Source: an uncultured bacterium (GTDB taxonomy: Bacteria; Ratteibacteria; UBA8468; B48-G9; JAFGKM01). From it: a DNA stretch of 38,413 nt. The stretch spans positions 7,646-46,058 of the forward strand of contig CAYQXZ010000001.1 of assembly GCA_964421645.1 (NCBI GenBank). The letters are read 5' to 3'. How positions within the stretch are numbered: the first letter of the stretch is position 1; the number at the start of each line of letters is the position of its first letter. Position numbers and translations under genes: made by a program. Under the pieces are notes generated by a model. That model was given only the letters and a program-made list of their open reading frames with translations. It ran no database searches and was not told the origin of the DNA. Below are positions 7,243 to 11,176 of this stretch, piece after piece.

Positions 7243-7677
7243 CTATTTCTCCGGCATGGGAACCTTATTATTTCTGTACTTTCCCCACTGGATTGAAGGA
7301 TCTACCCAATAAATATTCTCAAATCTCTTATTGAATGCGATTATTTTGTCCACAGAGCTTTTTCCTATGCCAATATCTCGTGCGAACGTTTCGTTTTGAT
7401 TTAGTAAGTAGAATCCCAGGTTATCGATCCTGTGAAGGAACCCGCTCAACTCATGTCCTATGCGCCAGTACAGGCGGGAACTCTTATCACGTTGTTTTGA
7501 ACATAGAGCAAGAATGTTCTTGACCGTTTCTATGACAATGGCGTAATCCTGCTCCATGAAAGAGAGTTCTTTCTGGATGTTTCTTGAGACATTTTGCATT
7601 ACTTCCATTGCCGTAGATATTTTGAACGGTCTTTCAGTGTTGTCACCTCTGAATATTCTTATAGGATATTGCTTCAT
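7243..7677 (-). CDS. Hypothetical 144-aa protein with a possible helix-turn-helix; last gene of the R-M/GHKL operon
   Basis: The ORF was trimmed to the ATG at 7677 (MKQYPIRIF...), 2 nt after the GHKL gene stop (7680-7682). The segment ETFARDIGIGKSSVDKIIAFNKRF looks HTH-like. I recognised no family. Confidence 0.6.
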   Translation of the reverse strand: MKQYPIRIFRGDNTERPFKISTAMEVMQNVSRNIQKELSFMEQDYAIVIETVKNILALCSKQRDKSSRLYWRIGHELSGFLHRIDNLGFYLLNQNETFARDIGIGKSSVDKIIAFNKRFENIYWVDPSIQWGKYRNNKVPMPEK

Positions 7678-7679
7678 GA

Positions 7680-9203
7680 TTAGAGATTGCCTCCCCATAC
7701 GGAAAGAAAATCAGCAATGAAGGCCTGTGGAGATTTTTCGCTCTCAACATATCCGGATAATGCCCATGCGACAGTTACAAACCAGTGGTATCTCAATGCT
7801 TTTTCGTTCCTTTCTATGTTCCTGTATGCGCTGTGACCTGTATTTATGACAAGTGTCGTTCCCTCAAGCCAGCCAAGTTCCTTCCTTTCCGGAGAGTTAT
7901 TGTAACCGAGCATTAATCCGAGTCGTCTTCTTCGGCCTGTATGCGGGAGTCCTCCATCAGTCGGTTCCGGAGACGGCTCAATATGTTCGCCCGGGTCTAT
8001 TCCGGGAATTGCATCTATTCCTCCGCCCGTTCCGTCTCCGCCTTCAGTCCCTGACATTGTTCCGGTGCCATCTTCAGGCGTGCCGGCGGGAGGTGCTGTG
8101 GAATCAGGGATTATACCTGCAATCATGCCGCTCCTGGATCCCTTGCCCAGCAGAGGACTCAATTCCGGAAAGTCGTCAAGCATATTTCCCAGAATGCGTT
8201 CCAGTTCTCTCTCAAGAGACTGCGCATCCCTTTTTGAGGTTTCTTCAATATCTCCCGCCTCTCCCATGTCTTGCAGAACAAGCTTTACGGTTTCCTGAAT
8301 GGCCTTACGGTACTTGTAATATTTTTGCAGGCTGTTCACGTCCCTCAAAAAATCCATTTTGTTGATTGTCAGCAGTTCCGCCATCATCGGGATTTCTATT
8401 ATGCCTGTGACATGCATGGGGCTGCGCGGAATGATGCCCAACCAGTCCCAACCTCGTTTAATGATTTTTCCAAAAGTTGATATTGCTATGCCTCTCTTTT
8501 CCTCCGGCAGTTCCGTATCGCTCCTGGCAATAAATCCTATTCCAGCCGGTTTCTTTCTCCTGCCCATGCCGACTACAAACCATTTCTCTTTCATCCCTTC
8601 AGGAGGATTCACAATCTTTCGCCCGTTTATGAAAATTTCCACGCCTTTCGTATATATATTTTTCAGTACGTCGGAGAAGCTTTCATGCAGGAGAGGATAG
8701 TAGTAGGTTTGAATCACGTCTTCTATGTGAGACTCGTCAAACAGCGATGATGAATCGTTAAGATATATCGAGACAGAAGTTCCATTTTCTCCCGTAACGA
8801 AATTCCGAATATCCATATATTCCCACGGAGCCTTTTTTGCGCTTTCGAGCCACCACCGGGATGCCTTATGAAAATCTTTGTTCTTTGTTTCGGTCTCAAC
8901 TTTTCCTGCATACAGCAGGGCAAGTTTTACGCCAACCCCTGCAAAACCGATCCCTTTCCCCCTGACCTTGCTGGTTTCGGCTATGTCATGATAGGCCTGG
9001 AAATCTTTTTCAGACATACCTTTTCCATTATCCGTAATTGTAAAAGTTCTGGCATCCGCGTCCGTAGTGATCCTGATTTTAGATGTTCCGGAATCAAGAG
9101 AGTTGGCAATCAGTTCCAGAATTATTACGTCTTCCGCGGGACACGGATAGCTGTCCCTGATGTCTTCCAGAAGGTGAGTCAGATTTACACGTGTTTCTCC
9201 CAT
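7680..9203 (-). CDS. GHKL-superfamily ATPase (HATPase_c_3 / MORC-Hsp90-like)
   Basis: Bergerat-fold motifs are present: ELIANSLDSG (motif I, N-box), ITDNGKGMS (motif II), GKGIGFAGVGVK (motif III). An S5-like segment follows (GIAISTFGKIIKRG ... LTINKMDF). Next comes a G/T/P/E-rich low-complexity linker and a conserved-looking C-terminal tail (LVINTGHSAY...). Confidence 0.8.
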   Translation of the reverse strand: MGETRVNLTHLLEDIRDSYPCPAEDVIILELIANSLDSGTSKIRITTDADARTFTITDNGKGMSEKDFQAYHDIAETSKVRGKGIGFAGVGVKLALLYAGKVETETKNKDFHKASRWWLESAKKAPWEYMDIRNFVTGENGTSVSIYLNDSSSLFDESHIEDVIQTYYYPLLHESFSDVLKNIYTKGVEIFINGRKIVNPPEGMKEKWFVVGMGRRKKPAGIGFIARSDTELPEEKRGIAISTFGKIIKRGWDWLGIIPRSPMHVTGIIEIPMMAELLTINKMDFLRDVNSLQKYYKYRKAIQETVKLVLQDMGEAGDIEETSKRDAQSLERELERILGNMLDDFPELSPLLGKGSRSGMIAGIIPDSTAPPAGTPEDGTGTMSGTEGGDGTGGGIDAIPGIDPGEHIEPSPEPTDGGLPHTGRRRRLGLMLGYNNSPERKELGWLEGTTLVINTGHSAYRNIERNEKALRYHWFVTVAWALSGYVESEKSPQAFIADFLSVWGGNL

Positions 9204-9215
9204 TTGTTCTCTGCC

Positions 9216-9848
9216 TCATGAAGCACATAATCTTTTGATTTCCTGCTGTATTCCGTCGATCACTTCAGGATTCTGAATAATTTTCTTCTTCCCTTCGGTT
9301 ACCGAAATTATATAGAAAACTTTGTCTCCATATTTTTCGGTGAACTTCTCGTGAGTCCTCTTCTGGAATGAAAGTTCATTAATTATCTGCGGGATGTACG
9401 CATAACCTGCTGGTTTGATTTGCAATCCTATAAATTTGCCGTTGACCTTGATGAAAAAATCAACGTTGTATCCCCTATCCCATTCATCAGGAGCAGGTTC
9501 TATTGAAACGCCGAGTGCATTCTGGAGTTGTCCGTAAATCGTCTGAATTTCAGACTGGTAACCATCGTAAGTCCTCTTGATAACCAGGTCTATGATAAAA
9601 TTGATGCAATCCTCTTCAGTCATATTTTCTATTTCCGCTTTGCATACCTCGGTAGTTTTAACAAAGAGCTTTCTTCCAAGCTCTTCAAGATGCTGAATGG
9701 AATAGACTTTGCCAAAATAGTAGTTTTTCCATTCTTCGAGAGAGCATGGTGATAATTTCCGTATGAGATCAGCGACCGGGCCGACCTTACTTTTCCTCGT
9801 CAGTCCCCATCGCATATTCGCCTGGTTCAATATCCATTCTTTGGGCAT
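9216..9848 (-). CDS. Putative type II restriction endonuclease (small PD-(D/E)xK-like protein)
   Basis: 210-aa ORF whose ATG overlaps the methyltransferase stop (TAATG). A candidate catalytic signature is DEWDRGYNVDFFIKVNGKFIGLQIKP (D...D-x11-QxK). It may belong to the MjaI-like family, but I cannot verify this. Confidence 0.55.
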   Translation of the reverse strand: MPKEWILNQANMRWGLTRKSKVGPVADLIRKLSPCSLEEWKNYYFGKVYSIQHLEELGRKLFVKTTEVCKAEIENMTEEDCINFIIDLVIKRTYDGYQSEIQTIYGQLQNALGVSIEPAPDEWDRGYNVDFFIKVNGKFIGLQIKPAGYAYIPQIINELSFQKRTHEKFTEKYGDKVFYIISVTEGKKKIIQNPEVIDGIQQEIKRLCAS

Positions 9849-11140
9849 TATTGTCTCCTTTGATTCATGAAACTCTCTCTATAGCGGTAACTGATTGTTG
9901 TATCCACATCCGTAAGGCCGGAACGAACAAGGTGTGCGTTCAAAAAAGTCCTGTTTGAAAGGTAGAGATAACAGAGGAGGTTATTTTCATCGTCATATTT
10001 TATTTCGTCAAATTTCATAAATACTTTCTGTCCGCGGGTTTGCTTGTGCAGGAATTTGGTTGCCCTGCCGTTTGTTTCAGGTTTTTCTTTAACTCCCAAA
10101 AGTCTGACTGTCATTCCATTGTTCAGAACGATTTTTGCAGGTGAGAGAATTTTCCTTATAGTGTAATAAATTTCTCTGTTCACCGGGGTGGATGCGTCAA
10201 TTTTTGAGCCGAACTTCAATCTTCGGGGGTCAATCTTCTTGTCGAAACGAATAGGATCTTTGAAAATGTATGGCAGATTATTGATCTCCCGGTCGAAGTG
10301 ATTAATGTCTCTGCCTTCTTGTTTGGTAATTTCAAAAGAAGCATTTTTGAAAAGGGCGTTTTCTTTCAAGCCCAATTTTTCCTTAATAACGGGGATATAT
10401 TCTTCATTTATTTCATATCCCGTGGAATTTCTTCCTGAATTTCTTGCCGCAAGTGAAGTTGTACCGCTGCCGAGAAAGGGGTCCAAGACCGTTTCTTCCA
10501 CAAAACTGAACATCTTGATGAGCCGTTTTGGAAGTTCTTCCGGGAATGCTGCAAGATGTTTATTCTGCTTTTCACCGGGAAAATGCCAGTGCCCTGTGAA
10601 GTATTCATTCCATTCCTTGTCGGTTAGACGGGATTGCTTCCTGACGTCTTCAGAAACTTTGATTGGATTTCCAATCTTTTTGAAAATAAGAATAAATTCA
10701 TAATCTAACTTCAGGATTCCGTTCCGGGGAAAAGGATAGGAACCCATTACAGTTGCCCCGCCGGTAGTATTGCAGGTGGTTACCTTTTGCCATATTATTG
10801 CACCCATATAGTCAAAACCAATGGTTTCGCAAAATCTTATTATTTCTGTTCTTATTGGTATGATTTTATATCTGCCGTAGTAGATTGAGCGGGCAAACTG
10901 GTCTCCGATGTTTATGCATAGACGGCAGGTTGGATGCAAGACTCTGTAACATTCCTTCCAGACGAGATTAAGGTTGTTTATATACTTTTCATAGGTGTCA
11001 TTGAATCCAATCTGACGATTGTTGCCATAATCTTTTAACTGCCAATAAGGAGGAGAGGTCACCACAAGATGCACGGATTCATTTGACACTTCTTTCATAT
11101 CTCTTGCGTCACCAATGATTATCTTGTGTTTAGTTTCCAT
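9848..11140 (-). CDS. Beta-class DNA methyltransferase (N6_N4_Mtase type, SPPY motif, likely N4-cytosine or N6-adenine) fused to a C-terminal SNase-like OB-fold domain
   Basis: Motif IV is VVTSPPYW. It lies upstream of motif I (DPFLGSGTTSLAA), which is the beta-class permutation. HLAAFPEELPKRLIKMFS is also present. The C-terminal ~95 aa align by eye to staphylococcal nuclease (MTVRLLGVKEKPET / LLCYLYLSNRTFLNAHLVRSGL). I preferred the ATG at 11140 over the TTG at 11176, because the TTG lies inside the -35 box. Confidence 0.85.
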   Translation of the reverse strand: METKHKIIIGDARDMKEVSNESVHLVVTSPPYWQLKDYGNNRQIGFNDTYEKYINNLNLVWKECYRVLHPTCRLCINIGDQFARSIYYGRYKIIPIRTEIIRFCETIGFDYMGAIIWQKVTTCNTTGGATVMGSYPFPRNGILKLDYEFILIFKKIGNPIKVSEDVRKQSRLTDKEWNEYFTGHWHFPGEKQNKHLAAFPEELPKRLIKMFSFVEETVLDPFLGSGTTSLAARNSGRNSTGYEINEEYIPVIKEKLGLKENALFKNASFEITKQEGRDINHFDREINNLPYIFKDPIRFDKKIDPRRLKFGSKIDASTPVNREIYYTIRKILSPAKIVLNNGMTVRLLGVKEKPETNGRATKFLHKQTRGQKVFMKFDEIKYDDENNLLCYLYLSNRTFLNAHLVRSGLTDVDTTISYRYRESFMNQRRQ

Positions 11141-11147
11141 CACTCTT

Positions 11148-11176
11148 ATTATATTTATGTTGTTTCTCCGAGTCAA
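11148..11176 (-). promoter_or_regulatory. Near-consensus sigma70-type promoter of the R-M/GHKL operon
   Basis: The minus strand reads TTGACT (11176-11171), a 17-nt spacer, then TATAAT (11153-11148). Seven nt (aagagtg) follow before the ATG at 11140. There is no Shine-Dalgarno sequence. Confidence 0.6.

Follow-up and report, generated by a model that had tools for sequence, protein, structure and literature searches.

Four co-directional, tightly packed genes lie behind one strong promoter on the minus strand of a 38,413-nucleotide (nt) stretch of bacterial DNA (contig CAYQXZ010000001.1), which we refer to as the window and whose positions serve as coordinates throughout. The cluster (7243-11176, ~3.9 kb) combines a restriction-modification (R-M) pair with two further genes, hereafter the cassette, that recur together at many other loci. 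The first gene in the direction of transcription encodes a type II DNA methyltransferase (9848..11140, minus strand; 430 amino acids (aa) from an ATG at 11140), which we delimited with Pfam and PADLOC models, its open reading frame (ORF) and the start called in locus L081 (labels of this kind designate contigs or loci that were compared with the window). On the same strand follow the genes for an MjaI-family type II restriction endonuclease (9216..9848, 210 aa, Pfam PF09568), a GHKL ATPase (7680..9203, 507 aa, supported by Pfam, a homologue alignment and a predicted structure) and a small partner protein of 144 aa starting with MKQYP (7243..7677), which is the product of the next gene after the ATPase and matches no family model. 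A first-pass annotation of this DNA had described such a compact arrangement, and every element of it was borne out: the methyltransferase stop and the endonuclease start overlap by 1 nt in caaTAATGccc at 9848, and spacers of 12 and 2 nt separate the ATPase gene from the endonuclease gene and from the small gene, respectively.

The same annotation had placed one near-consensus promoter before the first gene, and our promoter scan agrees. A sigma-70-like site (TTGACT-17-TATAAT; 11148..11176, minus strand) had 11/12 matches and was the sole minus-strand site above 10/12 within the island, in a scan whose overall yield was not above shuffled expectation (13 sites versus 8.6 +/- 2.1). Scanning found neither a minus-strand terminator-like site inside the island nor a promoter-like site above 9/12 ahead of the ATPase gene, and the layout suggests that all four genes are co-transcribed. 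The longest methyltransferase ORF (9848-11176) opens with a TTG; the true start is likely the ATG at 11140, which was called independently in L081. Because the -10 hexamer ends 7 nt ahead of this codon (11138-11176, minus strand), the R-M transcript may be leaderless. Leaderless transcripts have been reported for some R-M systems.

The first two genes make up a plain type II R-M pair, as had been proposed, with adjacent, co-oriented genes and model matches for both products. The methyltransferase matched PF01555 (N6_N4_Mtase, E=7.7e-44) in a Pfam scan and, over its full length, the PADLOC model MTase_II (PDLC03259, E=5.8e-196). Its motif order, with SPPY (motif IV) before FxGxG, is that of the beta class. 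A motif IV of the SPPY type points to N4-cytosine methylation, and the motifs suggest that the enzyme makes N4-methylcytosine. The tail carries an SNase-like C-terminal domain (9896..10069, minus strand; residues 370-427 of the 442-aa ORF) identified with PF00565 (SNase, E=3.5e-5, 24.7 bits against a cutoff of 21). This fusion had been singled out as notable, yet a single PADLOC MTase_II model covers it end to end, which makes it a catalogued family architecture. The endonuclease matched PF09568 (RE_MjaI, E=5.2e-43) over profile positions 1-161 of 164, and also the PADLOC model REase_II (PDLC03450, E=1.8e-19). The prototype of the MjaI family cuts CTAG, and this sequence is, by analogy, the probable target of the island's pair. 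CTAG was 50-fold depleted in the whole window (1-38413; 3 observed, 149 expected), as was TCGA to a lesser degree (9 observed, 149 expected); other 4-mers occurred at ~0.5-2x expectation. Such avoidance suggests a long history of restriction by enzymes specific for CTAG (MjaI-like) and for TCGA (TaqI-like). Avoidance of CTAG is common in bacteria anyway. The strong model matches, the coupled and overlapping methyltransferase and endonuclease genes and the CTAG depletion all liken the pair to MjaI-family type II systems, and there is nothing out of the ordinary in the pair itself.

The two proteins of the cassette

The label "GHKL ATPase" is correct for the 507-aa protein, which matched PF13589 (HATPase_c_3) in Pfam with E=2.1e-13. 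Its N-terminal Bergerat fold leads into a middle region that resembles Hsp90, which is followed by a linker rich in Gly and acidic residues and an Arg-rich patch (GRRRR), and the C-terminal domain is of the alpha/beta type and conserved. The first-pass annotation had read ELIANSLD and DNGKGM as ATP motifs, a reading confirmed by an alignment of 30 homologues in which their E30, N34, D58, G60 and G62 are invariant, as is G82-G91, and T142 is nearly so. With an invariant catalytic Glu, Asn box, DxGxG motif and Gly-rich lid, the protein is probably a catalytically active ATPase, and ATP hydrolysis is likely. We also considered an HNH-like (beta-beta-alpha-metal) nuclease in the C-terminal WINxGHPAY of the protein and rejected it, as there is no conserved His after the first strand and no supporting model.

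The closest relatives of the ATPase by sequence and by fold are of the Hsp90 type. An AlphaFold model (mean predicted local distance difference test (pLDDT) of 81) was used for a Foldseek search, and the top 50 matches were all Hsp90-type proteins (Hsp90/TRAP1) aligned over the N-terminal and middle regions (E ~1e-15). Searching a profile of the GHKL family against the Protein Data Bank (PDB) returned the N-domains of Grp94 and Hsp90 (E=2e-10, among PDB matches at E ~1e-10 to 1e-8). The best NCBIfam match was HtpG (NF003555), which scored 40.3 bits where the cutoff is 371 and covered residues 37-167 only; NF050001 weakly matched the N-terminal region. The middle domain alone had no meaningful sequence match in PDB or Pfam. 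The term "MORC-like" used in the first-pass annotation is therefore imprecise and was not demonstrated, as no MORC or paraMORC family model matched the protein. The motif that unifies MORC proteins in the S5 fold is GhXhhpXXRhl (Iyer, Abhiman and Aravind, 2008, PMC2292703). The ATPase contains a similar string that may correspond to this motif, G238-IAISTFGK-II, with Lys for the MORC Arg and Ser at a hydrophobic position.

The structure predicted for the 144-aa partner (mean pLDDT of 90) consists of a beta-hairpin, two long helices and a helix pair (94-102 and 106-118) that resembles a helix-turn-helix (HTH). No family model, and no HTH family, in Pfam, NCBIfam or PADLOC matched the protein, and comparisons with PDB sequences, PDB folds and viral folds yielded nothing significant, with only weak ParB/Spo0J-like hints (E ~0.5). 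The earlier description of the protein as "HTH-like" thus stands as far as the model goes, which makes a C-terminal HTH plausible and perhaps probable, but no significant match accompanies it. On the same predicted structure, the partner may bind DNA. The reading of its gene as an orphan, which came from a word-indexed search that returned only the protein itself, was rejected once homologues were found beside GHKL homologues. A profile search of 1.84 billion representatives recovered 179 relatives of the small protein, none with a Pfam domain. Looking up the window's proteins in sequence clusters returned neither names nor a taxonomy.

Distribution and acquisition of the cassette

We compared the window with 43 cassette loci, made up of 22 genome loci, 8 further contigs and 13 metagenome loci and excluding the window's own lineage. 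In all 43, which are spread over many phyla, the GHKL gene is directly followed by a co-directional gene for a homologue of the small protein, and the linkage of the two distal genes assumed in the first-pass annotation is well founded. Homologues of the small protein in the 22 genome loci were 28-46% identical to it (blastp E as low as 1e-43), and most of their ORFs run over the GHKL stop codon by 4 to 19 nt. Across the loci, overlap of the two genes is the rule, typically by 1-4 nt and by up to 19 nt when the longest-ORF start is used, and it suggests that they are translationally coupled. The 19-nt overlap with the GHKL stop arises from an alternative upstream ATG-GGN start that is present in many of the small ORFs (7680-7698, minus strand, in the window). 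This upstream ATG may be a by-product of the conserved C-terminal Trp-Gly codons of the GHKL gene rather than a real start. The longest version of the window's small ORF (7243-7698) would encode 151 aa, and the shorter 144-aa start fits the N-termini of the homologues.

Comparison of loci L001 (7998-9893) and L108 (1820-3728) identified the boundaries of the unit. The two are 85% identical in DNA across the GHKL and small genes only, and their flanks are unrelated; because the identity is restricted to the two genes, the pair is the mobile unit. The conserved unit, on these sequence comparisons, is the distal gene pair and not the four-gene island. Linkage applies to the partner-bearing GHKL clade, to which our claims are limited. 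A distant sister clade (L026-L079, 38-43% identity to the window protein) had no small partner and no conserved neighbour, and three Chloroflexi-like loci (L008, L009 and L112, ~44% identity) also have a GHKL gene without the small partner. Among the candidates scored, the GHKL family had 2056 matches of ~510 aa, mostly from uncultivated lineages, and its distribution is sporadic across bacterial phyla and archaea. No GHKL relatives were found in phage, plasmid or IMG/VR collections, so a phage- or plasmid-borne origin of the ATPase is not demonstrable. In Chloroflexi/Anaerolineae-type loci (L012, L015 and L115, as well as L009), the same gene for an MgsA AAA+ ATPase lies upstream of the cassette or the GHKL gene, a pattern suggestive of a fixed chromosomal site and of vertical inheritance in this group.

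The window's own copy of the cassette stands out in base composition together with the R-M pair. The GC content at third codon positions (GC3) is 0.43, 0.45, 0.47 and 0.47 in the four island genes compared with 0.57-0.67 in the flanking genes on both sides, and the best explanation of the four-gene block is one horizontally acquired island of two modules. Its upstream edge is at 11181..11182, where strain-variant contigs stop matching the window: contigs from other samples, in which the upstream 192-aa gene is unchanged, match the window at 99.4-99.9% identity as far as 11182 and then diverge completely. Past this point, where the window has the island, the variant contigs (L097-L100) encode an MNT (NTP_transf_2) and HEPN pair and, after it, a ParA-like ATPase. 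Sample ERZ27245470 contains the island form as well as the MNT-HEPN form, and the site at 11182 is a population-level variable hotspot. The four-gene arrangement itself recurs at ~99.8% identity in L081 and L082, in both cases with a Bat/aerotolerance-type operon after it.

These distributions bear on a role outside defence, with the ATPase and the small protein acting as an Hsp90-type chaperone and its co-chaperone, or with the ATPase serving in DNA maintenance, and with only an incidental proximity to R-M genes. Such a role would agree with Hsp90, TRAP1 and HtpG being the best sequence and fold matches, with the housekeeping genes that flank many cassettes, with the vertical inheritance suggested by the MgsA neighbour of the Chloroflexi loci and with the family not being found in phage, plasmid and IMG/VR collections. 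We nonetheless consider it improbable, given the sporadic spread over bacterial phyla and archaea, the foreign composition of the island in the window and the linkage to R-M genes in 30% of the loci. The HtpG score, moreover, is far under its cutoff (40 versus 371 bits), and neither PDB nor Pfam contains a sequence relative of the middle domain.

Association with restriction-modification genes

Thirteen of the 43 loci carry R-M genes in line with the cassette, in five architectures and with spacers of ~25 nt or less in most. Four loci (L004/L088, L086, L105 and L106) have the cassette inside a type III operon, in the order N6_N4 Mod, GHKL, small gene and ResIII Res; the spacers are 2-18 nt long and the four loci have diverged to ~64-76% identity. 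Six others (L011, L024, L025, L111, L114 and L116) have an Eco57I/MmeI-like enzyme of ~1000 aa directly upstream. The other architectures were seen once each: a type II pair of a methyltransferase and a DpnII-like endonuclease directly downstream of the cassette in L001; a type II pair of a ThaI-like endonuclease (PDB 3NDH, E=2.7e-87) and a methyltransferase upstream of it in L103; and, in L014, a cassette preceded by the gene for an Mrr_N protein and followed by one for a DEAD/MZB/DUF559 helicase-nuclease of 1725 aa. Outside the 13, a type I system lies 1.6 kb from the cassette in L093. The surroundings of two cassette-bearing type III operons resemble a defence island: a caspase-like peptidase and a TIR protein of the ThsB type are encoded near that of L086 (JGI 3300044799), and HEPN_AbiU2 and an Xre-type HTH protein near that of L088 (JGI 3300001533).

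A neighbour-joining tree of the GHKL proteins placed the six Eco57I/MmeI-like loci in one clade, whose sole other member has its upstream context cut off, and put the four type III loci in one group, together with two whose context is different or unknown. In both groups the divergence of the R-M proteins is similar to that of the cassette (61-82% identity), so the R-M associations of both clades are stable and inherited. Chance neighbourhood does not easily explain the type III and Eco57I/MmeI-like links. For comparison, no R-M family was seen twice among the 145 neighbours of 45 GHKL loci from the partnerless clade.

We favour an explanation in which the island joins two modules that are read in the same direction from the single strong promoter. 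One is an ordinary MjaI-family type II R-M pair with CTAG as its probable target, and the other a self-contained mobile cassette formed by an Hsp90-like GHKL ATPase and a translationally coupled small helical protein. The cassette travels alone and has been fixed repeatedly in line with unrelated R-M types, and we therefore interpret it as a portable, ATP-driven accessory of restriction. By analogy with other GHKL proteins, the ATPase dimer could work as a nucleotide-gated clamp and the small protein could tether it to DNA or to the restriction enzyme, making the pair a candidate ATP-gated clamp with a DNA-binding adaptor. Together, the two proteins would modulate or back up the cleavage of foreign DNA. 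A defence role of any kind, like the manner of the interplay between cassette and restriction, is an inference. Whether the cassette is a functional accessory of restriction in this island is, in our judgement, an evenly balanced question.

Several observations weigh against this explanation. About 70% of the cassettes have no directly adjacent R-M gene, and the R-M-less cassettes that we checked sit among housekeeping genes, toxin-antitoxin pairs and mobile-element genes; the cassette must therefore work, or at least persist, alone. The combination with an MjaI-type pair was found only in the window's own lineage (L081 and L082), with no independent replicate. The type II associations look recent and unstable, as L108 is without the R-M pair that L001 has, a contrast which suggests that the R-M link was gained or lost not long ago. 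No effector domain, whether nuclease or toxin, is recognisable in either cassette protein, the predicted HTH is without a significant structural or sequence match, and no PADLOC system matched the cassette beyond a weak N-terminal match of the GHKL protein to TmtA (20.8 bits). Finally, the R-M pair and the cassette could be located together merely through clustering in a variable hotspot, past whose breakpoint other strains have the MNT-HEPN pair. The first-pass annotation had presented the four-gene set as a candidate composite system, a reading that is supported in part: the four-gene architecture is not itself conserved, and the MjaI combination is confined to its own lineage. The tie that it proposed between the two distal genes and R-M held in part, for the 13 loci and their five architectures but not for the ~70% without an adjacent R-M gene. 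What survives of the composite defence reading as a whole is the R-M pair, the linkage of the distal genes, the recurrent R-M context and the common GC3; the conserved four-gene unit does not.

Much of the same evidence would also fit two independent systems that share one hotspot side by side, an R-M pair and a stand-alone cassette for defence or addiction, without a functional tie between them. Most cassettes are indeed without a neighbouring R-M gene, L001 and L108 have only the two-gene unit in common, and the MNT-HEPN pair past the same breakpoint in strain variants is what a defence or accessory hotspot would be expected to hold. Elsewhere, cassettes adjoin toxin-antitoxin pairs, HEPN, TIR, integrase or resolvase genes. 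Functional independence sits poorly, however, with the position of the cassette between mod and res in four type III loci with 2-18-nt spacers that have diverged to ~64-76% identity, and with the confinement of the Eco57I/MmeI-like loci to one GHKL clade. It also leaves aside the equal GC3 of the window's four genes, the 12-nt spacer and the lack of any promoter-like site above 9/12 before the GHKL gene. We regard two unconnected systems as a possible, though not a likely, explanation.

The accessory role that we favour could be one instance of a broader one, which we put forward as speculation with a low likelihood. The cassette would then be an effector-less immune or immune-accessory module that is distributed across many uncultivated bacterial and archaeal phyla and works as an ATP-gated DNA clamp loaded by a DNA-binding adaptor. 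It might silence or trap incoming DNA alone, by compaction of the MORC type, or plug into any R-M type (II, Eco57I/MmeI-like or III) to license, boost or guard restriction.

Described GHKL systems and the flanks of the island

The cassette fits the known theme of GHKL ATPases in R-M systems and, by sequence, matches none of the families described under it. Comparison with PADLOC-DB v2.0.0, which includes Mza and other GHKL systems, gave no system match for the GHKL protein, only weak N-terminal matches to TmtA (<=20.8 bits). The literature that we searched contained no named system that matches the GHKL/small pair, only fused GHKL-nuclease and GHKL-Argonaute systems and two comparative-genomics papers.

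In the first of the two papers (Iyer, Abhiman and Aravind, 2008, PMC2292703), the GHKL ATPases are MORC and paraMORC proteins whose genes share R-M operons with those for methylases, SFII helicases and nucleases. The likeness to the cassette is in a GHKL ATPase with intact ATP motifs and a middle domain, in the sporadic distribution and lateral transfer, and in the embedding in R-M operons beside methylases, type III-like Res helicases and nucleases of the restriction endonuclease fold. The differences are several. The window's GHKL protein matches no MORC-type model and its nearest relatives are of the Hsp90 type; it is not fused at its C-terminus to a nuclease, TIR or HEPN domain of the kind described for paraMORC3-5; and an obligatory small helical partner such as the one it has is not described in the available part of the paper (PMC2292703). 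An SFII helicase is present in ~70% of prokaryotic MORC neighbourhoods (PMC2292703), whereas the window's island is without a helicase and its relatives have a ResIII helicase in 4 of the 43 loci and a DEAD helicase in 1. Most copies of the cassette are, in addition, without an adjacent R-M gene. Hsp90, HtpG and TRAP1 share with the window's protein the N-terminal Bergerat domain and the arrangement of N-terminal and middle domains at the level of the predicted fold, yet differ from it in the C-terminal half and in the sequence of the middle domain, and the window's protein is the product of an accessory mobile gene with a dedicated small partner. Another likeness, that of a GHKL module in DNA-targeting defence or restriction and of the weak N-terminal match to NF050001, is to VcSduA and paraMORC3-type Shedu proteins and to the endonucleases of the BbrUII/HgiDII family. 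All of these have their own nuclease in the same polypeptide, unlike the window's GHKL protein and its partner, in which no nuclease is recognisable.

The second paper describes pairs of HEF_HK (PF19191) and Response_reg_2 (PF19192) proteins, 91.6% of them linked and with R-M genes over-represented nearby (Bellieny-Rabelo et al., 2021, PMC8011034). The tight linkage of a GHKL protein of the HATPase_c_3 type with a small partner in an R-M neighbourhood recalls the cassette, and raises the prospect of a regulatory pair, with a GHKL sensor ATPase or kinase-like protein and a small HTH transcription factor that control the neighbouring R-M genes much as C-proteins or HEF_HK/Response_reg_2 would. 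The probable HTH of the small protein model, the absence of a C-protein from the window and the position of the cassette in the R-M transcription unit are in keeping with this idea. The Pfam-A scan, however, matched neither PF19191 nor PF19192 to the window's proteins at E<=0.1, nor any receiver, histidine-kinase dimerisation or known HTH domain. In the structural models, the GHKL protein has a middle domain and folds like Hsp90 rather than like a kinase, and the partner, with its beta-hairpin, helical hairpin and probable HTH, is not receiver-like. The genomic context differs as well, as HEF_HK/Response_reg_2 pairs are mainly near type II systems with C5-methylases and the window's cassette and its relatives are near N6_N4 type II, type III and Eco57I/MmeI-like genes. 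Controllers of R-M are usually upstream, whereas the cassette is downstream of the R-M genes; the small gene, in particular, is 3' of both R-M genes and lacks the HTH_3-type match of C proteins and Xre-type HTH proteins. R-M-less cassettes would, further, have no obvious regulatory target. A regulatory pair is for us a very doubtful explanation.

The occurrence of GHKL ATPases in R-M operons was predicted by comparative genomics in 2008, and the experimentally tested GHKL defence proteins in the literature searched have the ATPase fused to a nuclease or Argonaute. With two genes and no other domains, the cassette is a clean, small test of what the ATPase adds to restriction, and it occurs naturally both without adjacent R-M genes and as part of R-M systems of at least four kinds, among them those with the cassette between mod and res. 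Present family and defence-system libraries do not contain it, so annotation pipelines pass over it. A cassette that turned out to be functional would connect restriction in bacteria with mechanisms of the clamp type, as in Hsp90 and MORC proteins.

On its downstream side, the cluster continues past 7243 with a gene for a 916-aa protein, which is on the same strand and begins 34 nt after the small gene. This gene is part of a Bat/aerotolerance-type operon (55-7208, minus strand) that also encodes 310-aa, TPR/PKD and DUF4159 proteins, followed in L081 (4085-14050) by MoxR, DUF58 and BatA. There is no terminator-like site between the small gene and the operon, and read-through from the island promoter into the 916-aa gene is possible. 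At this downstream edge, exact look-up gave no match for the 916-aa neighbour, nor did the exact DNA pattern at the start of its gene have a match in the metagenome collection. We found no noteworthy direct or inverted repeats flanking the island. On the other side, 2 kb from the island, the plus strand encodes a 424-aa protein with an rve integrase-core domain (13235-14509), probably the transposase of an insertion sequence; the variant contig L097 has this protein in the same position.

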